In this document: piece by piece, positions 5,472 through 63,505 of the stretch | Layout of the letters: each line of letters begins with the position of its first letter | Numbering within the stretch: position 1 is the first letter of the stretch | Source of the DNA: Schmidtea nova | Taxonomy: Eukaryota | DNA length: 64,000 bases | NCBI GenBank assembly: GCA_044892505.1 | Contig: CM097882.1 | Coordinates: 196,540,001-196,604,000, forward strand | Direction of reading: 5' to 3' | Translations under genes and position numbers: made by a program | The notes under the pieces: generated by a model | The model's database searches: none | Told to the model about the DNA's origin: nothing | The model's input: the letters and a program-made list of their open reading frames with translations, nothing else

Positions 5472-5639
5472 ATTTTATTTTGTATTTTCAATGTCTTTGT
5501 TCATGTTGCACGTGTATTGCATTGTCTTTGTTTAAGTTGCACGCGTGTTGCAAAGTCTTGCAGGTGTATTGCATTGTCTTTGTTTAAGTTGTACGCGTGT
5601 TGCAAACTTTTGACTCTTATTTCTGTTGAAATACTTTGT

Positions 5640-6365
5640 GTTAAAAAAAAATTTGTGTCAAAAAAAATTTTTGCAATAATAAATTTGGCGGGAAAAAAAA
5701 ATTTGAAAAAGAAAAATTTAAAAATTTAAAAAAATTTTGGCGCAAAAAAATAAATTTTGAAAAAAAAAAAAAAAAAATTAGCCCCCCCCCGGGGGGGTCT
5801 CGAAAAAGTTCTTTGTTTAAAATTTTTTACGCCCACGCATTAAAAAGTTCTTTGTTTAAAAAAAAATAAAAATTTTGAAAAAATAAAATTTGAAAAAAAA
5901 AAATTTGTGAAAAAAAAATTTGTGTGAAAAAAAAAATTTGTGTTGAAAAAATTTGTGTTAAAAAAATTTGTGTTAAAAAATTTGTGTTAAAAAATTTTGT
6001 GTTAAAAAATGTGTTAAAAAATTTTGTGTTAAAAAATTTTGTGTTAAAAAATTTTGTGTTAAAAAAAATTTGTGTTAAAAAATTTTGTGTTGAAAAAATT
6101 TGTGTTAAAAAATTTTGTGTTAAAAAATTTTGTGTTAAAAAATTTTGTGTTAAAAAATTTTGTGTTAAAAAAAAAAATTTGTGTTAAAAAATTTTGTGTT
6201 AAAAAATTTTCAAATTTCAATTTGGCGCGAAAAAAAAAATTTTTCAAAAAAAAAATTCAAAAATTTTTGGCGCGAAAAAAAAAAAAAATTTTTTTTGACC
6301 CCCCCGGGGGGGGGGGGGGGTTCCGAAAAAAAAGTTCTTTGTTTAAAATTTTTCGCCCACGCATT
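5640..6365. repeat. Low-complexity terminal repeat region: ~15-nt tandem array (TTTTGTGTTAAAAAA) bracketed by two C-run/G-run palindromes and a ~42-nt direct repeat
   Basis: C9G7 at 5782-5797 and C7G15 at 6299-6320, each followed by GAAAAAGTTCTTTGTTTAAAATTTTT..CGCCCACGCATTA; tandem array ~5915-6210. Confidence 0.85.
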
Positions 6366-13090: not shown

Positions 13091-15574
13091 AAAATCATGT
13101 AAATATACACATAATAAAAAAATCAGATCATCACATTTTAACTGAATGAGAATCTAGATTGCCTAAAAATAAAAATATGAAATTGATAATTAATATAAAG
13201 GAATATTCAACATACAACAGATATTGAAATAAAGTTACAAATCTTGATTTCTGCCTAGGAAGTTTTGTGATCTATAAATAGACAATAAATCGTTAAAATT
13301 ATTGAAGGAAAAATTTACCATATTATAATTCTATCCAATGAAAATGCGATTAGGATAAGGTAACAAGAAAATTTATCTCTAGAATAAATTGAGGCCAGAA
13401 GGCAGACGGAAACGGTCTTTAGGTTACCTAAATCTTAGTAATATTTTCAGACAATTTTTTAGTTATAATTTTTATTCTCTTATTAATTTTAAAATTTATA
13501 CATAAATTTTTAATTTACTAATATATTTGAAGTTTATTTATAATTTTAGTAACCGAAAAATAAAATAGGAAATCATCTTTTAAAATAAATAAATTTCACT
13601 TAAAGATATATTTAAAACCGTTTAAGGTCTGATTTATTTACAAATATTTTTATATTAAGAGCTGGGAAAGGGCTAGGACATTACTGAATAATGAATTGGA
13701 AGTCTATCGACATTTTAATCTTCTCAACATAATCTCGCAACAAGAATTATTGTCCTTAAACTCGCCAAAAAAATGAATTCACATATCAAGAGAAAATCCC
13801 GTATAAATTTTCCGAATTGAGTCATGTAGAATGTATGTTTGAGAATGATGATCAGTTGAGATGAATGTATAAAATTGTCGTTTGTTTGTTGTTGTTTTGC
13901 CGAATAATTAAGCACGTTGGGTCAAGTAAGATAATTAAACTTGTTCCTTCGAAGATTAGGAATTCTAGCGATCGATAATAGTATGATTTTTTCGAGTTTT
14001 TTTGATTTTAGACAACACAGTCTCAAATAGATCAACTCCTAAAATCGATGAAGGATATTGAGCTTAGCGTTCGAAAGATCAATATCCGGCTAGTAGTCAT
14101 GAAGGAGGAAAATAATATACTATGGGCGGAAAATAAATCGTTGGGAGAGTGGCTCGATAAATACAAGACACGTTGCCAAACCGTGTAAACAATATGGTAA
14201 AATGCGAAAAATGGCAAATGCCAAAGATTAAATCCAGTTATTGCAAAAGCAGGAAACCGAGGTTGCCACCAAAAATCGAGCCTGGAAAATGACGATTCTC
14301 GAGCGCGATGCTCGATTAATGCGCGTCCGAATAGAGTTTGGTCTAACCATCGCCGTAATAACATCGACATCCAACCCTCCATTGGATCTATTCCCACCAG
14401 TTCCAGCTGCAGACGAGGTCTGGATTGCAGACCCGCCTTCAAAGCCGAAGTGTTTCAAACCCAGCAAAGCAGTCAGGACGCGATGGCGAACAGGACGCTT
14501 CATGGAACAACTGAAGAGAACCACCCAAATGTCCATAGACCTAACCGACTTATGACAAATGCTTATTTTAACATTTAAATTTCTACCTTCTACGGTCTCG
14601 TAATATCGGACTCCTGTCATTTCGGTTTAATAATGTTGTTCTTGTGATTTTGTTATGTTACCGGGAAATAGTTTGAAGATAACACAATAATTTTGCGAGT
14701 GATTTATTTAATAACTTATTTATTTATTTATCTGACTCCAAATTATCCAATTATTTTTACATATAAATATATGATTATTTGGTTGCATTGAATATCAAAT
14801 GCTATTATTAAATAAAAACACACTCTCTTTTTTATAAACTTTTATTTACATCCAATGTACAAATTTACTAAAGAAATAAAAGACCGTTTTCGATTGATCG
14901 ATTCCCTCACTTGTCAGCAAGCAACACGATGCCTTCTAATGGCAAAACACCTTTGATTATACTTAAATGAAGAGGAATAAGGTTTTAATATTGGGGTTAG
15001 TCAGGTATACTAAAGTGGTCAATTACTTTGTATACGAATAAATGTTGAAACTATTTACCTAGTTTAGTTAAACTGTTGGATCAAAAATTTCGATAAATTT
15101 TTGACTAGTTGCGATGAACTAAACATTTCACTGGGAACAAACAGATTTTATAAAAATTCCACTTTAAATGTTGCAATTCTGGTTTTATTAAACCTTGCTG
15201 AATGTAGTTTATTTCTGCCTCGTTTACAAGAATTAATCGATTTATATACTAACTAATTATTTTCTAAATTACCAAAAATATATTATTAATAATTCTAAAT
15301 TACTATAAATAATTATAAATTACTTATAAATTACTGTAAACATATATTATCTATTTTTAGCAGTTATAAATTAACCAAAAATATATTTTTGAAATTATTT
15401 AAGTTATTATCTAAAAATTAACGTCGAGGCCTAAGGGCCTATCCCTAATATCTGGGTTGCAACTTTCATTGCTGATACCCCTAAAACAAAAGTTAATAAG
15501 AAAAATTCAAAAATAAACATTTATTTAAAAAATATCTTTCGTTGGTTAGAATTCTACTTGTTGAAATTTTCTGC

Positions 15575-15810
15575 GTTATAAATTTCAATTCTCTGCGTTG
15601 TAAATTTCAATTTTTCCGTGTTGTAAATTTCAATTCTTCTGCGTTGTAAATTTCAATTCTCTGCGTTGTAAATTTCAATTTTTCTGCGTTGTAAATTTCA
15701 ATTCTTCTGCGTTGTAAATTTCAATTCTTCTGCGTTGTAAATTTTATGCGTTTTTAAAATTAAATTCTGTGCGTAGTAAATTTTCTGCGTTTTTAAAATT
15801 AAATTCAAAT
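15575..15810. repeat. Minisatellite, ~22-nt unit TTCTGCGTTGTAAATTTCAATT
   Basis: Several near-identical tandem copies next to the second gap. Confidence 0.9.
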
Positions 15811-17262: not shown

Positions 17263-20200
17263 TGTAATTATAAAGATTCTTGTGCTTTGTGACCTATCAC
17301 ATTATAGGTTAATGGCAACGTAATATTTCATTAAATATTACGTTGCAGTTTTTCTTTAATCTCTAAATAATTGATCGTTAAATAAATATTAACCTTATTT
17401 CTATTTTTCTTTTAGCAATGGGTGTACAAGCTATCACGGCTATATTTAAAAAATATTGTGAAGGAGATGTTGTCAAGGGAGCGGAGGAAATTGAATTGAA
17501 GAGTCAATTGTTAGGAGCCTTCTCACATATGGGTCAGCTACTTCCTCTTCGTTTACAATGAGCAGCTTTAGACATATGGCGCCATCAGAAAGATCTCGCA
17601 AAGACCCCACTCATGCCACTCTGGTGAAGGCTTTCGGACTAAGCCCGTTTTCGAAGCATTTTAAATCGAGATGGCTCGTATTTTGGCTCTTTAAAACGCC
17701 CCGGGGAGCTGGCAAGAATAATCGATGAAGGAATCACCGTGGATTTTGTTGTTGGTCTCCCAGCCGCAGTATCGAAGGCATTGCAAATTACGGGGATGGA
17801 CGGCTAGGAGATTTTTATTGAAAAAGCTCAAATATTATCGGAGGGTGAAATCCCAGAGATGCACAAAGCGTGGAAAACAGAAGCTATGAGTGCTATCGTG
17901 TCAAAAAAGAAATTCAAATTCAAATGTTTCACATGTGATGAAGAAGGTCATTTTGGCAGAGAGTGTCGGCGTCCGAAAAACTTCATGGGGAAGCAGTTTC
18001 CTTCAGAACAACAATGTACGAATCCAAGTAAAACACGGTATTGCTTTGGTATATTCAGGCAGTTCTCAATTGATTCTGCGAAAATATCGGTTCAATGGAA
18101 ACTACGTGTCTAGTAAATGGATCGTTACTGTTGATGATCGAAAATTAGAATAAAGGAAAGATTCAATCGGTAATAGATTTCCGAGAGTTAAACGAGTGGG
18201 TCGAATATCACACAGGGGACAGTGACGTCTGCTCAGAGACGAAGCGTTAGCGGCGTCGAATGGGAGTAGAAGGAGTTCTTCTTGATTTGCGTAATGCTTA
18301 CTTGCAGATTCCAATTGAAAAGAACCTGTGGCGCTATCAAGTGGTTCGATTCGTGGAAAGACTTACTGTTTAACTAGCTTAGGATTTGGTTTAAACTGCG
18401 CTCCAAGGATAATGTGAAAAATCTTGCAAAGGGTGCTTTCTTCTAATGCCGTCATTCGAGATGCCAAATTCAGCTATATTGACGACATAGCAGAGGACTT
18501 ATCAAAGGCGGATCCGAAGGCTTGTTTGAACTTAAGACCAAAGATCCGGTACCCATCGCAAATGCAAAGGCGTTAGGGCTCTCTATTTTTCATAGAAAGC
18601 AAAGAGCTGAGGTGAAAGAGAGGAAATCAACTCAAGAACCTTGACGTAAACGAGTCATTCTCAAGACAAAAATTATTTTCTATTTGTGGTCACGTGATTG
18701 GGCACTATTCAGTGGCAAAATGGTTGGGAGTTACCTGCAGCTTTATTAAGCGGTTGAACGACGGAGATTTGTTGAATGACTATGTTGATGCCGAGGGCAA
18801 ACGACTTCTATCAGAGCTGAAGATCCAGTCAAAGGAATTTGGCTTGTAAGCAGATGCAGCGAAGGAATAGTTTGGCGCGGCACCAGTAATCTTGCACTGA
18901 TGGTCTGTCTAGAAATCAACAGAAACATAGATGAAGATGTCTCGTGGTTACAAAAGAAGGACAATTATTTACACATTAATGTCGCAGAACTAGATGCCGT
19001 TTTGAGTGGTATTAATCTTGCGGCTAGATGGAGAGTTCAAAGATTATCCATCATATCGGATTCAGCCACTGTCTTCAAATGGGTTGAGAACATTCTGTCG
19101 GGAAAGATGAAAGTGAATACCAGCAGCAGCTCCGAGATGTTGGTTAAATTGTGACTTGGTATGATCAAGTACTTAGAAGACGAGCTTGGACTAGAAATAT
19201 CCATCTAACTCGTGAAATCAGAAAAAAATGTAGCGGACACTGGCGCGGGTACACAAAGCGTGGATGAAATATTGATCCCCACTCATTGCTGGTGCTTCTC
19301 AGTCTTTAGTGTCCAAAATGCATGGGAAGCATCATCTGGGCATCAATCGAACGCTTTACTTAACAAAATATGATCTAACGATTAGCTACAATATGGTTAA
19401 GGAAACTATCAATTCGTGTAATAAGTGTAAGATGTTTGATCCGGTTCCAATAACCTCTGAGAAAAGTACTTTGTATGTGAATGATGAATGGACCAGAATT
19501 GCTGCTGACGTTGTTTTTCTTTCAATTGCAGATTGCGGGCCTAGCAGATTTTGCATCTTGGAAGAAGATTTTTAATGACGATTCGGTTTTCATTATCAAT
19601 GCTTTGAATACTGTGTTTCTGGAAAAGGGTTCAGTAAAAGAAACTCTGACGGATAACGGTTGCGAACTTTTGATTTGCTGAGTTCAAACTTTTTGCAGAT
19701 ATGTGGGACGTTAATCTAAAATATCGTCGCGCCGACAGACCCGAAGGGAATGGCATTGCAGAAAAAAACCACAGAACTATCAAGCGGATAGTTGAGAGAT
19801 CAGGCTGTGAACCACTAATAGCGGTCTTGTTTTATAATATCACTACTTATTCAGGCTTGGACGATAATACAGTACCTGCAAAGATTCATTTTGATCGAAA
19901 GTGGAGGTGCTCGAAATTGCTGGGAGACAAAGACAAATTTGATAGTCGCGAAAATTATGATTCAAATTAGTATGCTGTGGGGAATTTCGTATTCATATAC
20001 CCTGGGCCGTTTATACGATCACCGGAATCAATTCATCAACCAACGTAAGTCGATGGCACTTCGAGACACTTCAATAATCTTTGAAGGGTATCCAATTCCG
20101 GTGATATTATTGAACGAACAGAACTAATAAGCGACAGGGACCGAGATGATCCAGAATTTATTAGTTTAGTTTCACTAAGAACGAGAAAAGAGCGCTAGCC

Positions 20201-20356
20201 ACCAGAATGACTGAAAGACTATGAAATTGATGTTAAGATCATGGGGGCGTGTAACGATGCAGATTCTTGTGTGTCATGAACTATTACATCATAGGTTAAT
20301 GGCAACGTAATATTTCTTATCATTCTTTCTATTTGTCTTTTAGAAATGGATGCACA
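17263..20356 (+). mobile_element. Ty3/Gypsy LTR retrotransposon A (old, degraded)
   Basis: LTRs 17263-17428 and 20250-20356 (TG..CA; 3' copy internally deleted). TSD AATAT on both sides; PPT GATCATGGGGGCG. CCHC knuckle CFTCDEEGHFGREC, RT LDLRNAYLQI, RNase H HINVAELDAVL, integrase NGIAEKNHRTIK, all broken. Confidence 0.92.
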
Positions 20357-51135: not shown

Positions 51136-51886
51136 ATAAAATAAAACCCAATAACGGATCAATATTTAAAGTTTAGCAACGGACAAACAATTTTCGACAT
51201 CGCTCTTTCAAGTTAAGATGAGAGTATGAATTATGTGTTCTATGAAACTAATTTTTTTATTATTTTGTGATATTGTAGAATCTGAGAATCTAAAATTGCT
51301 GTCTCGCAGTCCTTTTTTTATTACATTGTTGTTGAAACATTTGCAATGATTATTAAATTGCTACGTTACAATGATAGAAATGGAAAAACAATTAAATAAA
51401 ATGGATCATAGGATAACTCGTATTGAGAACAAAATAAAGCTCTAACTAAAGAAAATGAAGAACTGAAACAAAAGCTAGGAAATTTTATTCAGTGTTGTAA
51501 ACGCATATGGTTTTGTTCAAAGAAAATGAAAGCAACACTAGAACGGTATCAAGAGATGCGGAAGCGAAGCGATGACGACGCACTACAGCGACGAGCACTG
51601 CAGGTTACCATCAAATAAAAAGAGTAAATCAAATAGCTGTGTCGAGCATGGATAAGCAATGGTCTTCCCTACATCGATCACTACAAATCTAACGGAAATG
51701 TTCCCACTATAAGTAAGGATTTTTGCGACGACAATAAGAGGACACAAGCTAAGTAAAACTGAATGAGCTCGCAATAAACAGCGACACAATGCTCACATAT
51801 TAAAACAATTTTCTCCTTTATTGCCACGCCAAGTGGATTTGATTTTGAAATTATTTTTATTGTTTCTTTGATTTGCATATAGTTTA

Positions 51887-54800
51887 TGTGAGATAATAAG
51901 ATAATTCAAAAATATTTATTCATTCAATAAATTTACTTATTTGAACAACTTTCTTTTCTTTTAAAAATCATTATTTTTAATTATTCTTCTTTATACATCT
52001 CCCCGAGATTCTGACAAATCTTCATTCCTGTGCCTCAAATCGGTCAGGACGCGGCATTGCCACGGTTCCGTAATCGACGATTGCTTTATGGGGAGACAGT
52101 AGCTTCATGATTCTTCCTCTCATCCAGGAAGATGTACATGGTTGATTTTGCGCGGGTTTCACCCACACCTTGTCGTTAATCTGAAAGCCATTGTCTATTT
52201 GTTGAGCCGTTCTTTTCGTTTCATTAAATCGATGTCTTAAGTCATAAGCGTAAATGCCTTTTATCGGGGGTCTGAAAGAACCATTTACTGGTATATTATT
52301 GTACCAGTAAATTGCTTCTTGCACATAGCATTCCGATTGCATGACTGCAGCTTTTATTGTTTTATGGTTCCACTTAATAATGCCGTTGCCTGCTGGTCTA
52401 TTAGTGGATCTGAATTCAGTTCTAATTTTTCACTTTTTCATTAGAGAAGTGAAAGTTTCTGACCTAAACGATAAGTAATTGTCCAACAGAAGCTCGTCAG
52501 GAGGTCCTCTTTCATAAAATACCTGTTCCAACTGTTTGCGAACGCCGTGTTACACGTATGTTTCATAATCCAATTTGAGGGAATTTTGGTTAATATGTCG
52601 GATTTATTTTTGTCTGTTGGAACGTATTCTATTTCAACCTTTATCTCATATTCAATAATTAGTTCTTTAATAACTTATTTACTAACTTATTTACTAAATT
52701 CTTATTTACTAACATTTCTGAGGAAGCTTTAGTTGAAACCTTTCTCTCGGATGTCAAGGCATTATGCACCCAACTTACCACGGATTTGTTATTCGACATG
52801 ATTTTTACTGTCTTTAAAATCCATTTGATGCATAAATTGATGCCTTTAACGATCGCCTCAAGTTCGCACAGGTTAATGTGCCTAACGTCATTCTCCTTTC
52901 TCAACCAGCATGCGTCTTCCACGATATTTCCGTCGATTTCTAGTGCTGCTCTTATGGCGATAGAGCTTGCATCACACCATAAAATGTTTCCTCTGTCCAT
53001 TGGTGTTTTCCATATACCATGAGCCGGATTATTCTTTTCAACCTCCTTAATTAACCATTTAACTTTGTATAGGTTTTGTACGCCGATTGGCCGGTCCCAT
53101 TCTCCTTCGCTTAATCGTTTGAGATAAGAGCACGCGGGTCGTAACCAACCTGCAACTGGAAGAATTCCGGTTAATTGACCGCATAATTAATACAGTTCTC
53201 GTCTATGTATTATTTTATTGTTTTATTCTGTCATTTAAACCCTACACGTAATTAACGATCTCTGTCATAATACCGGGAGCGATATTGATTCCGAAGCCTA
53301 GTCTCATCAATGTATATCGCCTTCCGTTTACAATGCATGACTGGTACTTCCACATACTCTCATCAACCCGGATTTGCATGTACGCATCAGATAAATCCAA
53401 AATCGCTATTTTCTTTCCTTTCTTTCTCCAATCTTTTATTGTTTCATTGCAAACTACTGCTTCTCCACTGTAGACGTCTAAATAATGATTTAAAGCTCTA
53501 AAATCGAACACTGGCCGTATTTTGCTCTTGTTCTTTTGCATAACCGGAAATAAAGTTACTGCTCTGACAGGCTTACCGAACCGGTTTTCGTCATATTCGA
53601 CTAACTATCCATTTTTGATCACTGCTCGATGACTTTGAGTGCTTGGCCTGCTTTGGGCTTATCTGGATCTAACTTGGAATATCGATCTGACATAGATACT
53701 GAGGGTTCTGTGTTCCAATTCCATGATACCATCCATTCTTTGTTGAACTTTGCTTCGAAGTTCATCCTTTGAATTAAAAAACTCTGAGCTTCGTTTCCGT
53801 TTACAACCCTCAAACATTTCAATTCACATCCGAATCTGACGTTTTCACTAATTGTCACTCCTCCTAGTGCTATAATGGCGTTCATACCTAATATGACTTC
53901 ATATCCCGCTATCATTTTTATAGAAATGTAACAGTCAATTATAAAGTACTTTCCTTCTAATTCGATTTCTGCCTTGTTCTGGCTCACCGGCAGTATCAAT
54001 CCATCTGCTAAAAACACGAGCGTTGGGTGACGTGATGGCTTCTCCGCGTATAATTGTTGTCGAGCATCCGGAATCTATAAGACATAGCCGTTTTGATCCA
54101 TTTATAGAAAGAAGTCTTTCTTTTAACATCTTTTTGGGATCGAGAGAGACTCTTGAATATTCTTGATCCCTTTGTCCTTTCCCGATTTACAATATTTGGA
54201 TTGGTGTCCGAGCATTTCACACCTAGAACATTGAATTTTTTCTTGTTCAGACAGTTACTGGCAAAATGGTTTTCATTACAAATATAACATTGCACCTTCT
54301 TTATCTTCATTGCAAAGGCAGACTGATGTCCATGAGCTAGATTCAGTCGTCAAGCGATGTCACCAATTGCGTCGACCGTCGTTGATCCTTGACATCTCAC
54401 CTCAGCTGCGATTTCTACTGGCAAGGAGTTGATTACAATGTTTATTGATAGATCTCCAGCGTTAAAAGCCAGATTCTTCATTTTTGATAAATGAATGTTA
54501 ATATTGTCCCCGATCTGGAATGTCTACTTGCTTCTGGGGGATCGCTGAAAGCTCGTATCAATGATATTTTAATTTCTTCATAACTAATATCTTCGTTTTC
54601 GCTGCTTCCTTCAAAGTGATAAATTCCTTCCCCTTCATGACAGCAGGTAAAATTTCTTTTTTTTCCATTGAACTTGTGAAGCTTGCATATTAATTCAAAC
54701 TTATCGAACCATTTATCGATTTTCATGTTTTCATCGTCAAAACATTCTATTGCACTCAATATATCTTTTATCATGCCCGGATAGCTTGTGAGATAATAGG

Positions 54801-54896
54801 ATAATTCAAAAATGTTTATTCATTCAATAAATCTACTTATTTAAACAACTTCTTTTCTTTTAAAAATCATTATTTTAAATTATTCTTCTTTATACA
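51887..54896 (-). mobile_element. Ty3/Gypsy LTR retrotransposon B (internally deleted)
   Basis: 110/111-bp LTRs 54787-54896 and 51887-51997 (about 5 substitutions + 1 indel); TSD GTTTA; PPT GGGGAGA. gag with CYICNENHFASNC, protease IDSGC, RT LDLSDAYMQI, RNase H WCDAS, integrase C-terminus. Confidence 0.93.
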
Positions 54897-56819
54897 GTTT
54901 ATCTTTATGCATTTTGTTGTGAATGATGTTTTAAATAATACCGTTAATATTTTATTTTTTATAAATATATTTGATTTATAATTTATTTATAATGACTATT
55001 AGTTGAATATTTAGCAAAAAGTTAAAGTGTTAGCTATAAATGTTTTTTTTCAAGATAATTATGTAGTAGTATCATATTGATAATAAAATTATTATAAACA
55101 AATTAAAATGTTTAAATTGATTTTTTGTCATAAAACAGATTTATTTGACATTAAAGACAAGGAACTGAGAATTGAAAATGAACATAAATTTTCTGTCAAC
55201 AGCACTTGAATTCTTTGAAATACTGAGTCAATCAGTTATGGGAACCGCTTATTTTTTGGGAGTATACTCCCATTAGTTACATTAAGAACATTATTTTGCG
55301 ATGAGTAACTATGGTTACATAATATTTATGAAGTTTCCGTGGTAAGGACACGCTCTAGGGCCGGGCAATCCTGACATTTGTCCGGGCGGCCTATTGGTTG
55401 TAAGTGTGAGAAAAATAGAAAAATTTTGATGTTTTAAATACTCAATAAATAGAAAATTTCACATAATTTTCTTCGTTAGGAAAAGTTTACAGTACAGCGT
55501 AGCGTATATTTATATTGTTTGTCTAAATGCTTAAGATATTTACACTATTATTGAAAAAATAACGCAGTATTTGTAAAGAACGATATTTGAACTTGCCTGA
55601 ACATGAAACCAATGCAATATAGCAATGAATATATGAAAGGAAAAACATTATCTAAAGCGACGAAGATAAGGCATTAATTAGGTTCATCACATCATTAAAA
55701 CGCGTTTTATAATAGTCTATTTGAATAATTTAACTGAATAAAATTTAAAAATCATGAATTATAATTCTTTTTAATGACTTTATGATTTGCTGAAGTATTT
55801 GTTATTATATAAGATACATATATAATAAAAATTTACTTTCTTTATTTTCCCAGATCCTAGATACGAAAATGTCTAACGATCAAAGAAAAAGACTGTATGG
55901 TTACTACATCTTTACAAGTTATTACATCTTTTAAATTTGGTGATGATTTCCTGTAGTACTCCAACAGAACCAAAAAGAGGTAGGAAAATAGGAAACTATT
56001 TACCGAGATTTTTGCAAAATTGTTGAAAGGAGAATTTATTAATTAAAAGGCAAAGGCGTTGCAATGAAATAATCAAAAAATCTAATCTGAAAGGATGAAC
56101 ATATATGAAATCATAAATAGCAGATCAAATGTGAAAATTAAAGATTTAAATGATAGAAAATTTTTATAAAAAGTATCGGGTATTCCTTCAATACGCGGAT
56201 AGTTACAAATTTCAAAGAATTTATTATAAAATACCTCTATTAATTAGCTCTAAAATTGAGTAGGGGAAATAATTCATCAGAAAAATATAAAATTTGTAAA
56301 TAAATTAAAAACTAAGGATAACTTATTTATTTTCAAATGTCATGAAACAAATTTATGAAATTCATATTCAAAAAACCAATGTCACCAATGGTTGAATATC
56401 AATTGAAAACATTACATCAAATCGTGTTTTCCATTATTTCATAACTATTAGAATTTATTTGATCTTTCGGTTCTGGTAGTTTTATTGAAACTTTCTGAAA
56501 TAATTTGTTTATCGAAAAACATTTGAAAATGTAAAATATATAATATTAAAAATTATCTTATAAATTACTCTAACATTCAATAATTCAATATTTTTCTAAT
56601 TGGTTCTTGAATTCCGGAATTTTGGTAAGTTCAATTAATGTAATTAGCGCAATAAGTAGTGAGACTCTTATAGAAGTAAATAAATGAATAAACCAAACTG
56701 TAAATATATTTTCATTCATGCATATAGATAAATATATTAATATTTGTTTTAATTAGTTATTACTTAATTATTACTTAATTAAGTTATTACTTAATTATGA
56801 AATTTTTGCACTTAGTTTA

Positions 56820-59195: not shown

Positions 59196-62100
59196 TGTGA
59201 TAAAAAATGTTTGAAATAAAGCTCGATTCAGCGTTTATTCTTTATTACAAGATTCTTTTTCAAATTCTGTTTCTCTTTGAAAATCACTCGATATAAACAA
59301 ATCTATTTTCTTTTAAATTGATTATCTAAAATAAATTAATTATCACATTCCCCCGTGATCAGTACGACGAATCCAACTCGTACTGATCAAGATAGGAAGG
59401 CTTCCTTCGGTTGCGAGCCAAGCGCGTGTCTTCCTCACTCTCTTCTGGATTTCTGATGTCAACCTGATTGTCTTCAAATTCGCATTCGACATCGCTGGAT
59501 TTGATAGATTGATTTGGCAACACTCGGATGTCTGCAACATGACGCGGTACACCGTCAACCTCTACGTTGGTAGGTGAATTAATGCCAGTGATGATTCCAC
59601 TGGACCACTGATCAGTGCATTTGGTCGGAACTGGCTTTATAACAACATTCTGACCAGTTTTAAATTTACTAGATACTACGCGCTCCTCCTCGACATCTCT
59701 GTGAAATTTCCATTGGTACTTAAATAGCCCCTCTGATGGAGCTGTACTCTGATTCTTCGCGTCTTTGGGTGCCATGTTATACCAATAAACAATGTCCCGT
59801 TGGTCTGAACGACTCCTGGCTGCATGGGATTTTATTGTCCGGTGGTTTCTCTCCACGATACCATTCCCAGATGGACGGTAGGCACATATGTATGTCGGCT
59901 TTACATCCCATCTACAACATAAATCTTGTAAAGATTTAGAATGAAAACTAGGCCCATTGTCCATGAGTAGCTCACGAGGCGGACCTCTCTCTCGAAACAC
60001 TTCTTCGAGATTTTTCACAATATTTTGTGCATCTTCATTTGGTATCCTTCTCCAAATTGCAAATCTGCTAGGCCCACAATCAACGATAGTCAAGAAAATG
60101 GATCCTTCGTAGTGCGTTACATCTACAGCTAGTCTTTCCCAATTTTTATCGAACCCTAATGATTCATTTTACCACTTAAATGGCGACGGATCGATAGATT
60201 TACATTCAATACAATTTCTTACCACATTTTTATGAGGTCTCGTGGGGTTTCTGGGTTTTCTAACTGAATGAAATAAATAGATTTTTCCAGACCAAAATGG
60301 TTTTTGTTGTGACGGTTTCTTACTTGTTCTGACGATAAGCCCACGCAGCCAAAGGATGCTCTAGACTTCAACCACCTCTTTGGAATGCGTGTCAGTATAT
60401 CTGCTCGGTTTTCCGCTGATTTAACCAATTGCACCTGAATAAGAATTCTGTCATTCTTGATAATCTCTTTTATTATTCCCAAGCGACGTCTTATCAGAGT
60501 CTCTGAAATTCCATGGACACGAATCTTACATTCATTGTTAAGAACTGTTCTCAACCAGCCTACTACCGTCGCCGAATCCACCATCAGCTCGATTTTTTAA
60601 CGCCCCATTTGATTGCTAAGTTTACGCCTTTAAGAACTGCATCGAACTCAGCGACGTTTGTATGTGAATGATCATCACTTTTCCTGAGTCAAGTTGTATC
60701 CTCCACGACGTGGCCATTTATCACTAATACGACACCCAGTGCTAAACTGCTAGCATCACACCATAAAGAACAGTGATCCCTGATGTTTACAGTCCAGCTT
60801 CCTTTGACTGGATCGTCCATTTCAATGAGACTCGTCACTTCAGTCAATCTCGATTCGCACTCTGTTCCGACGAGATCATCCCAATTTGTACCATCCGCAA
60901 TTCTCTTGATAAAACTGCAAGCCACTCTGAGTCACCCCGCGACCGGATAATGCCCAATAAGCTTTCCACAAATAGAAAACAATTTACGCCGAGTAACTTT
61001 ACCTTCAATTGGGTCAACTATATTTCCTCTTGACCATAACAGGTTACCGTGACGATTGCGTTCAATTTTTAAACCGAGAACCTTTGTATCCACTAACAGT
61101 TCCACTGGCTTCGTTACTAATCTATATTGAGCCAAATGTTTCACCACTTCATCGATACTGACCAAACTCGTGTTAACAGCTATGTCATCGATGTAATGAT
61201 CTGTCGCATTCAGGATTCGCGAATCGAGACTCAGCACCTTTCTCAACATTGAGGACATTATCTTTGGAGCACAACTAAGACCAAATCCTAGTCTTGTAGG
61301 ATAATACGTCTTCTTTTTGTAGCGAATCCTTTGGAATTCCCAAAGATCTTTGCTTACATGCAACTGCAGATAAGCATTTCTTAGATCAAGCATCGATAGC
61401 TGTTCTCCCATCTGTCTCCATCGTTTTAGGCTCTCACCACAAACATCACTATCGCCAGTGTGACTCTTCACAAATTCATTGAGTTCCCTAAAGTCAAGAA
61501 CGAGTCGAACTTTTCCTTTGTTTTCTTGTATTGCAGAATTCCGCAGCCGGTTTCTTCAGCGAGGGTTAGCCAGCTTTCCATTATCCATCGCTCTACTTCA
61601 ACTTCATATTCTTGTCGCACTTCAGGCTTAATTGCGTATTCGGCAACGTTGTTCCGCAAGTCTTTCCATTTCCAAGATATTGTCCACTTGTCTCCGTCAA
61701 AACTTGCAGCGAAATCCTCATCGTCGATCTTCACTTGTTCTTGAACTAAAACCCGCATGAATACTCAAGTCCATTCACCAAACTGTACTCCATAATTGTC
61801 AATTGAGACTCCTCCAAGGCGTTCAATCGCATCGAGACCTAAAGTAACATCCACTCTGGTTACAAGATTCGACATTATTAAGCAATTTAACAAAAAACTT
61901 GTTCCTCGAACAGATAAATGACACTGACTCTCCTTCACAGTGGACTCTTCTACCATCTACTGCAACAACAACTCTGGCTTCACAACTTCCTTCTGCACAG
62001 ATACGGGAAACAATGGTTTGCGAACATCCAGAATCGACTAGTCCAGTGCACAATTTTCCATTCACTCTGAGTCTGACAAGTACTCGCGCAATACCTGACA

Positions 62101-62961
62101 TCACTGAGAAACCGCTGGCGCTCCAGTTTCTCTTTTGGCGTTTCCCTGTGCGTTTGAAGAGCATTGTCTCGACGAATGCCCTTTGATTCCACATGTCCAA
62201 CACTCTTGAGAGGGGTATTTATTTTTGAAATGTCCGGATTTTCCACATCCGTAGCAAAGTTTGACTTCTTTACCGGGCGCAAAACCACTTCCTTTCACTG
62301 CAATTAGACCAGTGGAGCCATTTTGTTCTGATATTAGTGCTCGAGCTTGTCGAACAACTTCTGAGAGATTCATTTCGAAGATCATTGATGAAGCTCTGAG
62401 TTAGTGGGAAACCATTGATGGAAGTCCGACTACAAATGCTCTCTTGAGAAGCCCATCATCATTTATTCCAGCCAGCGTAGCTAATCGCTGCAAATCTGTA
62501 AGAAAAACATCAACTGGCTCACCATTCCACAGACGATTGCGAAACGTGTCATATGCCTAGAATCCATCTATCGAAAAGGCATCTGTTAGGGATTTTTCAG
62601 TTGCGTCGATGTTTTCTTTGTCCTTCTCCGTCAGGTGATCATAAACAAGAAAAGCTTGTCCATCAAGCAGTAATGGGAGAAAGAAGGCCAAATCTTCGAT
62701 TTTTTTATGCTTGGCCACTAACTTCAGCTTCTTAAGCCAAGTTGAAAACTCACCTACTCCATCGTAGGGCTTGATAAATTTTTGCAACTCCATTATAGCC
62801 GCGATAGCTTGTGATAAAAAATGTTTGAAATAAAGCTCGATTCAACGTTTATTCTTTATTACAAGATTCTTTTCCAAATTCTGTTTCTCTTTGAAAATCA
62901 CTCGATATAAACAAATCTATTTTCTTTTAAATTGATTATCTAAAATAAATTAATTATCACA
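59196..62961 (-). mobile_element. Ty3/Gypsy LTR retrotransposon C (youngest; 3766 bp, complete domain set)
   Basis: 152-bp LTRs 62810-62961 and 59196-59347 (2 differences; 7-bp TGTGATA..TATCACA); TSD AAGGG/TAGGG; PPT GATCACGGGGGAA. gag with two CCHC knuckles, protease VDSGC, RT YIDD, RNase H WCDAS, integrase DDE (VD..MDNG..VERNH), with frameshifts. Confidence 0.95.
59343..62793 (-). pseudogene. gag-pol of element C (multiple frameshifts/stops)
   Basis: ORFs 62557-62793, 62101-62385, 61823-62203, 61468-61758, 60932-61471, 60689-60925, 60219-60584 and 59359-60093 form a gag-PR-RT-RH-IN order. Confidence 0.9.
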
Positions 62962-63505
62962 TAGGGTTTTTCAGTTAAATAAATAATTATCTCAAATAAA
63001 AAAAATAATTATCTCAAGTAAAAAAATAATTGCCTCAGATCAATTATAAAAAATAAATAATTAATTGTTTTATAAAATGTAAAAAATATTTAAAGTAAAA
63101 AATTACACTTTAAATGGTGGAAACAACGAAATAAATTATTTTAAAATTGAGTGGCTTTTTGTAACAATATGTAATATGTTTATTTTTAGATCCTTAAACA
63201 TGAAAAATTTCACAAATTACACAATGACTGATTACATAATCATAAAATCCATAGATCCAAGTAATGTATATGCTCTTGGAACTGCAATTGCTGCTGGTAA
63301 TGAAGAAATATCTGCACCTGATTGTAACGGTTATTTTTCTCATATGAGACAATTTGTTGTGAAAGAATTATTGAGATTATTATTTTACTTTAAACTAATT
63401 ACATTATATAAAACAATTATTTATTTATTTGAGATAATTATTTGTTAATTTGAGATAATTATTTTTTTTATTTGAGTTAATTATTTATTTAACTGAGAAA
63501 TCCTG
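62962..63505. mobile_element. Long-TIR MITE whose left terminus was hit by LTR element C
   Basis: AGGGTTTTTCAGTTAAATAAATAATTATCTCAAATAAAAAAATAATTATCTCAA is inverted at 63425-63505 (..AACTGAGAAATCCTG); TA flanks. Confidence 0.65.

Follow-up and report, generated by a model that had tools for sequence, protein, structure and literature searches.

A primer site complementary to the 5' end of host tRNAs in a clade of compact Gypsy-type retrotransposons

Results

The window examined here, a stretch of 64,000 nucleotides (nt) of Schmidtea nova DNA (assembly GCA_044892505.1, contig CM097882.1, positions 196,540,001 to 196,604,000 of the forward strand), contains on its minus strand, from 54896 to 51887, a retrotransposon with long terminal repeats (LTRs) that we term element B. 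Directly after the CA of its 5' LTR, with no spacer, lies a 12-nt primer-binding site, AGCTATCCGGGC (54775..54786, minus strand), which occurs only once in the 64-kb window and is perfectly complementary to nt 1-12 of host tRNA-Lys(UUU). Comparison with relatives confirmed that a site complementary to tRNA nt 1-12 is real and clade-wide, and that at least two host tRNAs, tRNA-Lys(UUU) and tRNA-Phe(GAA), are matched in different families. Judged from the sequences, it is probable that this clade-wide site binds the tRNA 5' end, whose cleavage after base 12 would yield the primer for minus-strand DNA.

Host tRNA genes and genomic copies of the site

A preliminary description of this DNA had proposed that the site at the end of the 5' LTR is complementary to nt 1-12 of tRNA-Lys(UUU), and had named three possible objections: that host tRNAs lack such 5' ends, that the element primes itself, or that the motif is accounted for by the 3' end of another RNA. 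The host genes bear out the proposal. In the 1.25-Gb host genome, the tRNA-Lys(UUU) genes called with ARAGORN, which form arrays, have exactly that 5' end, each starting with the exact reverse complement of the 12-mer. The other two objections fail as well, since neither the LTR nor the rest of the element contains a partner for the site, and just 16 of the 1127 genomic copies of the 12-mer are neither a tRNA start nor an LTR end. The absence of TGG, also pointed out before, stands too: the site neither starts with TGG nor pairs with a tRNA 3' end.

The 1127 matches compare to a single match for a reversed-pattern control, so that the frequency of the 12-mer is not due to chance. Apart from the 16 just mentioned, 682 copies continue as a tRNA-Lys gene and 429 into an LTR-type end. 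Of the first listed matches, 30 loci were fetched; all are LTR-CA/primer-site junctions, belonging to three families, and none contains a tRNA gene. In family B, 79 of the 97 listed copies, counted by eye, carry the exact site, and the host genome holds at least 504 exact sites of the Phe type.

Host tRNA genes are organized in long single-type tandem arrays of hundreds to thousands of copies, with periods of 419 nt for Lys-UUU, 240 nt for Phe, 264 nt for Arg-UCG, 739 nt for Lys-CUU and 263 nt for Ile-UAU. A lone 28-nt 5' piece of tRNA-Lys (L061/L112), considered as a trace of a primer, is rather a 254-nt fragment of a tRNA array that includes the upstream spacer. A loose genome search, for which the reversed-pattern control was high (2486) and uninformative, yielded another frequent motif class, the third (14 rows by eye among the first 100), which was rejected as a primer site: an LTR pair was absent from all eight copies fetched, and no host tRNA was found to start with its complement (three matches, none called as a tRNA). 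L149-L156 represent a dispersed host repeat that mimics the loose primer motif and has no LTR pair or long frames.

The site as a character of the clade

Most other host families carry a site perfectly complementary to nt 1-12 of host tRNA-Phe(GAA), as does a second element of the window, element C, whose site lies at 62798..62809 (minus strand). In a motif-blind test, we sampled 40 of 150 host matches to the reverse transcriptase (RT) of a family member from outside the host (each fourth row, and two more), located the LTR end solely by the LTR pair, and then read the next 12 bases. An LTR pair with a shared CA was present in 21 of the 40 loci; 15 of these 21 have the exact Phe complement and 19 have at most two mismatches, the remainder comprising one small insertion and one mis-called LTR end.

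The site is also found beyond the host. Among 85 loci collected by protein similarity from metagenomes and metagenome-assembled genomes (MAGs), it is in place in 67 (61 by script, one of which, L203, is doubtful, and six by eye), compared to five in a reverse-strand control; the remaining 18 are without an intact junction between 5' LTR and gag. The commonest metagenomic site type is identical to the end of a Drosophila tRNA-Phe 5' probe published in PMC7038984 (this and all further citations refer to excerpts of the papers).

A conservation profile over 73 distinct junctions (of 79; 12 from the host) showed that the conservation spans 12 positions and ends at the point matching tRNA nt 1. Positions 10-12, which lie outside the filter used for collection, carry 1.5-1.8 bits, compared to 0.36 bits at position 13. 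The variable positions of the site face acceptor-stem nt 4-6, and those facing nt 1-3 are invariable. On a quick RT tree of 74 rows, from which element A of the window and one of the 73 junction loci were excluded because their RT matches are too short, the 19 site types require at least 31 changes, compared to a minimum of 18.

In locus L227, the first site base has changed together with a different part of the acceptor-stem complement; the corresponding tRNA is presumably elongator tRNA-Met. Three close relatives from different metagenomes, L183, L215 and L196, differ at two adjacent site bases, both versions being Phe-like types, as would be expected if the site followed the host tRNA after a change of host.

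Site variants and matches to tRNA-Lys(CUU)

The start of host tRNA-Lys(CUU) differs from that of tRNA-Lys(UUU) by one base. A changed site nt 6 in Lys families has 11 genomic matches, nine of which are element junctions, and seven of these nine are T>G changes that give the exact complement of host tRNA-Lys(CUU). The seven copies belong to two families and have no minority variant in common, so the switches to Lys(CUU) are likely of several origins. The same class of change was found in 0/858 at neighbouring Lys-site positions (p 0.0005, post hoc), and over all control positions it accounts for 9/40 variants (p 0.003, post hoc, with six nt-1 matches included without a junction check). This hints that the tRNA 5' end is really used, since a switch, whether by copying of a near-cognate primer or by survival of variants that keep a primer, would need that end to act at the site. 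Rewriting of the site by a near-cognate primer has been described for retroviruses and for mouse ETn, with two Lys tRNAs (PMC7472051).

Other variants cluster elsewhere. Nucleotide 5 of the Phe site, facing tRNA U8, has 19 variants, 14 of them A>T, across seven reference families (L756-L774), compared to four to six variants each at Phe nt 1, 4 and 6 and two at nt 5 of Lys sites. Since the nt-8 variant of the tRNA-Phe arrays is mostly G, not A, the arrays do not explain this hot spot, which could be a misread modified primer or a host mutation bias. At site nt 4, facing tRNA A9 (L741-L750), T>G accounts for four of five variants in Phe families, spread over four families, whereas in Lys families all four independent variants are T>A; transitions are absent, and the difference between Phe and Lys gives p 0.05. 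One reading of this pattern is that a modified A9 is misread when the primer is copied. As to exchanges between Lys and Phe sites, 13 candidate rows for a Lys-to-Phe switch turned out to belong to a separate Phe family.

Structure of element B and its full-length relatives

Element B belongs, as a broken copy, to a young family of Gypsy-type LTR elements with the compact size of 3.6 kb. It consists of a 5' LTR of 110 nt with TG...CA ends (54787..54896), the primer site, a broken gag and pol region (52020..54774) encoding protease, RT, RNase H and integrase, a polypurine tract (51998..52004) and a 3' LTR (51887..51997) that is 94.6% identical to the 5' LTR over 111 nt, all on the minus strand. 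It is flanked by a 5-nt target-site duplication, with the 5' copy at 54897..54901 and the 3' copy at 51882..51886 (minus strand). The gag ATG (54772..54774, minus strand) adjoins the primer site and has the same place in uninterrupted copies; likewise, the polypurine tract is a short G-rich run adjoining the 3' LTR both here and in other copies. The coding region is interrupted by frameshifts and stops and lacks ~560 nt, and the element measures 3010 nt in total, compared to ~3570 nt in full-length copies.

Full-length natural copies of ~3.57 kb encode a Gag of ~200-240 residues with zinc knuckles and a Pol of 911-929 residues. The L101/L102 family combines this length with LTRs of 91-110 nt and numerous copies with identical LTRs, and 60 of the 150 listed RT matches are 100% identical to the query. 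In uninterrupted copies, the Pfam positions, together with the motif columns of aligned Pol proteins, give the order protease, RT, RNase H and integrase, as in Ty3/gypsy elements, and the direct TG...CA repeats, target duplication and polypurine tract agree with that group; integrase does not precede RT as it does in copia elements. By its domain order the clade bears out the Gypsy label given in the preliminary description, although it is a divergent one. The RT-RNase H part of Pol is itself divergent, with a weak RVT_1 match and a DUF7047 match, and a Pfam search found neither the usual Gypsy RNase H families nor a chromodomain in Pol. Across 40 aligned Pol sequences, RT, RNase H and integrase all keep their catalytic residues unchanged, the D-E-D-D residues of RNase H being present in 40/40.

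Structural similarity searches placed Pol no more closely. The PDB matches are weak and scattered over Ty3 and retroviruses, a predicted structural model of Pol matches retroviral protease-RT folds, and atlas and fold searches returned generic RT matches with no clade name among them. Named relatives of Pol, known here from proteins alone, come from Hydra, Trichuris, Pomphorhynchus, Petrolisthes and Caligus. A search of four contig sets found the family in two organisms, and the viral contig set held no relative. Eight loci of the animal-type clade, L246-L253, lie in four bacterial MAG records, L251-L253 forming a tandem array, and are most likely host contamination. Cigr-1 is a compact invertebrate Gypsy lineage of ~4 kb, and we take Cigr-1 or 'Gypsy-Cigr' as a guess at the clade name. 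Families of Cigr-1 have been reported from molluscs and annelids (PMC6238403, PMC8556966).

A proposed model for priming by the tRNA 5' end

The geometry of the site suggests a single simple reading. Nucleotide 12 of the tRNA faces the first base after the LTR CA, and a 3' end at nt 12 points into the LTR, so that a 3'-OH at U12 would start minus-strand DNA exactly at the LTR end. The duplex between site and tRNA has 12 base pairs and a computed energy of -23.5 kcal/mol. Moreover, the Lys site carries a C facing tRNA G6, where the 3' strand of the tRNA has a U (G6-U67 wobble), and therefore was not copied from the 3' acceptor strand.

We propose that the site would invade the 5' strand of the acceptor stem and the D-stem, probably aided by the zinc-knuckle Gag, and that, where the RNA-RNA duplex ends, the tRNA would be cleaved between U12 and C13, with the element RNase H as the likeliest enzyme. 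RT would then extend U12. The whole 12-nt primer would probably be copied into the plus strand, with the primer 5' end as the stop, and a stop at this point would give the site its fixed length; a near-cognate primer might occasionally rewrite the site. The Tf1 transposon offers a precedent for the cut: the first 11 bases of its RNA are paired with the primer site, and RNase H cleaves this RNA directly after base 11 (PMC7175516). Because Tf1 performs the same chemistry on its own RNA, we favour, by analogy and at slightly less than even confidence, that the element RNase H makes the cut, which would be the Tf1 reaction carried out in trans on a tRNA, over a fragment made by the host.

That the host supplies the primer is nevertheless the most serious competing idea. 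A host nuclease might release a 5' tRNA fragment by a cut in the D-loop, later trimmed to the 12 paired bases, with the element RNase H uninvolved. Fragments of this kind are known as a class (PMC7472051), half-tRNA primers of the copia type show that cleaved tRNAs can prime (PMC6317226), and all the sequence evidence fits equally well. We consider it less likely, as the 12-nt length is fixed over deeply diverged families and the match reaches tRNA nt 13-15 in none of the 73 distinct junctions, a limit that the integrase CA in part imposes; a cut measured by the element would fit this better than one measured by many different hosts. It could also be that the primer ends at tRNA nt 10 and that the first two bases after the LTR are a spacer trimmed by integrase, as is frequent in retrovirus-like elements; the purine tracts do end in two variable bases before TG. 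This is improbable, since both bases can pair with tRNA nt 11-12 and hardly vary (73/73 and 72/73 in the filter-selected junctions, 19/21 in the motif-blind test), and the sole exception, L227, changes as a tRNA with another nt 12, presumably elongator tRNA-Met, would require. Still more improbable is a retron-like reaction in which the annealed tRNA would stay intact and RT would start from its U12 2'-OH, giving a branched RNA-DNA. Retrons are a precedent for such a start, which would presumably explain the exact register without a nuclease; however, the Lys(CUU) switches suggest that the primer is copied, which a branch would make difficult, and we know of no 2'-OH priming among LTR elements.

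The remaining alternatives do without a tRNA as primer. The site might bind a tRNA for packaging, dimerization or gag translation, or be a protein-binding motif, with priming achieved otherwise, and in 46 of 70 junctions no more than 7 nt indeed separate the gag ATG from the site. We judge this very improbable, as the site has the exact position and orientation of a primer site, no other candidate occurs between LTR and gag, and its sequence follows that of the tRNAs instead of one fixed motif. Priming by the 5' end of the element's own RNA, as in Tf1, would suit the length (12 compared to 11 nt) and the absent spacer, and the 3' end of some other host RNA might serve; taken together, these options are hardly credible. 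In element B, the site forms Watson-Crick runs of at most 3 nt with the LTR and at most 6 nt with the rest of the element, and in 13 of 13 elements the longest runs are 3-7 nt and 5-8 nt, respectively, which excludes self-priming for want of a complement in the own LTR or element. As for another RNA, 1111 of the 1127 genomic 12-mers are tRNA-Lys starts or LTR junctions, and different families match different tRNAs.

Several observations weigh against priming by the tRNA 5' end, or limit what supports it. Many loci are near-duplicates, and the motif-blind test was dominated by two families. Most metagenome loci were filtered on positions 1-5 plus the CA, leaving only positions 6-13 independent, and the match of the metagenomic sites to tRNAs of their own hosts is presumptive. 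Phage-contig tRNAs start with several of the metagenomic 12-mers, but as a check of the site types this is weak, as most such matches have no tRNA call and the hosts are unrelated. For the L227 site no tRNA was found, the host search giving a tRNA-Ile array with another start. Across 70 junctions, a stem between U5 and leader is not conserved (mean z 0.02, compared to 0.01 for swapped pairs) and there is no extra tRNA-pairing box within 60 nt of the site, whereas Tf1 needs surrounding structure. The invariant RNase H residues are expected in any LTR element and are uninformative on RNA-RNA cleavage. No Lys-to-Phe switch occurred among 97 copies of family B. In addition, no tRNA partner is known for the substitutions that cluster in Phe sites, 14 of them A>T at nt 5 and four T>G at nt 4, which weakens the inference drawn from Lys(CUU).

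Other elements and features of the window

Element C (59196..62962, minus strand) belongs to another family of the same clade, with LTRs of 153 nt that are 98.7% identical and broken frames. Element A (17263..20356, plus strand) is an old, decayed member with a 5-nt target duplication. Its primer site (17429..17440, plus strand) has one mismatch to the complement of tRNA-Phe nt 1-12, and a host copy that looks similar by eye, L164, matches tRNA-Phe exactly; the site of element A is most plausibly a Phe site that has decayed, rather than a match to a third tRNA.

Outside these elements, the region 62-2914 contains integrase and chromodomain fragments and a Pox_A32-like ATPase, with a TBP-like domain on the opposite strand, and from its domains looks like a Polinton/Maverick remnant. 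An open frame at 7519-8286 matches PAC1 (proteasome assembly chaperone), and AT-rich tandem repeats with periods of 15 nt and 23 nt occupy 5600-6260 and 15557-15806, respectively.

Discussion

A survey of plant elements distinguishes three primer types, the whole tRNA, the half tRNA and the self-primer (PMC6317226). The clade described here shares features with each. Similar to Tf1/Tf2 of the Tf1/sushi group, its primer would be short (12 compared to 11 nt) and come from an RNA 5' terminus, its site adjoins the LTR, and release of the primer would require cleavage where an RNA-RNA duplex ends (PMC7175516, PMC4600332). In contrast to Tf1, whose partner is its own transcript, the partner here is a host tRNA in trans; the site is not complementary to the own LTR in any of 13 elements, and neither a conserved flanking RNA structure nor a chromodomain match in Pol was found.

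The half-tRNA-primed lineages are alike in that their primer is a 5' piece of a cleaved host tRNA. Drosophila copia and Ty5 are of this kind. Further cases are the Ty1/copia lineages Osser, Bryco, Gymco-II and Bianca, all users in plants being of the copia type (PMC6317226). Their tRNAs are cut in the anticodon stem, whereas the match here does not reach that point and covers nt 1-12 of host tRNAs, with a putative cut in the D-stem, in elements of Gypsy domain order that match Lys and Phe tRNAs. Compared to canonical priming from the 3'-CCA end, as in retroviruses and most Ty3/gypsy elements, the primer would likewise derive from a tRNA, the site adjoins the 5' LTR (PMC7472051, PMC13191261), and a near-cognate primer might rewrite the site as in mouse ETn. 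However, the present site faces the opposite tRNA end, has no TGG, would offer no free 3'-OH before processing, and would need no modified base as a stop for the plus strand. For Ty1 and Ty3 it has been reported that the primer sequence is not inherited (PMC7472051, PMC13191261). Altogether, the geometry is that of Tf1 and the source that of the copia half-tRNA primers, and the clade is a member of neither group.

We found no description of priming by tRNA nt 1-12 in the full-text literature, searched with the motif strings included, a scope to which subscription papers and the entries of Repbase, GyDB and Dfam are external. The excerpts of papers on LTR elements of molluscs, annelids, crustaceans, tunicates and microsporidia and on LTR evolution mention no such site (PMC6238403, PMC8556966, PMC8220671, PMC3587641, PMC4402516, PMC4202319, PMC2774666, PMC3601003), nor do those of papers on tRNA primers (PMC7472051, PMC13191261, PMC4600332).

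If priming by the tRNA 5' end is true, it would be a fourth primer type beside the whole tRNA, the half tRNA and the self-primer, used by a clade with Pol on record in cnidarian, nematode, acanthocephalan and crustacean genomes and young and numerous in the present host. The prediction is exact, namely that the primer is tRNA nt 1-12. Annotation tools that seek tRNA 3' ends would score such elements as lacking a primer site. The elements would also escape silencing by 3' tRNA fragments and could be targets of 5' fragments. If the element RNase H makes the cut, it would be part of a small guided enzyme that cuts RNA and primes from it, and the clade would bear on the relation between hairpin or self-priming and tRNA priming, a question raised in PMC3601003. 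More tentatively, the sequences may point to a fourth mode of LTR priming in an old, animal-wide, minimal Gypsy-type clade, in which a tRNA primer cut by RNase H is copied back into the genome, and which would link Tf1-type self-priming to tRNA priming.
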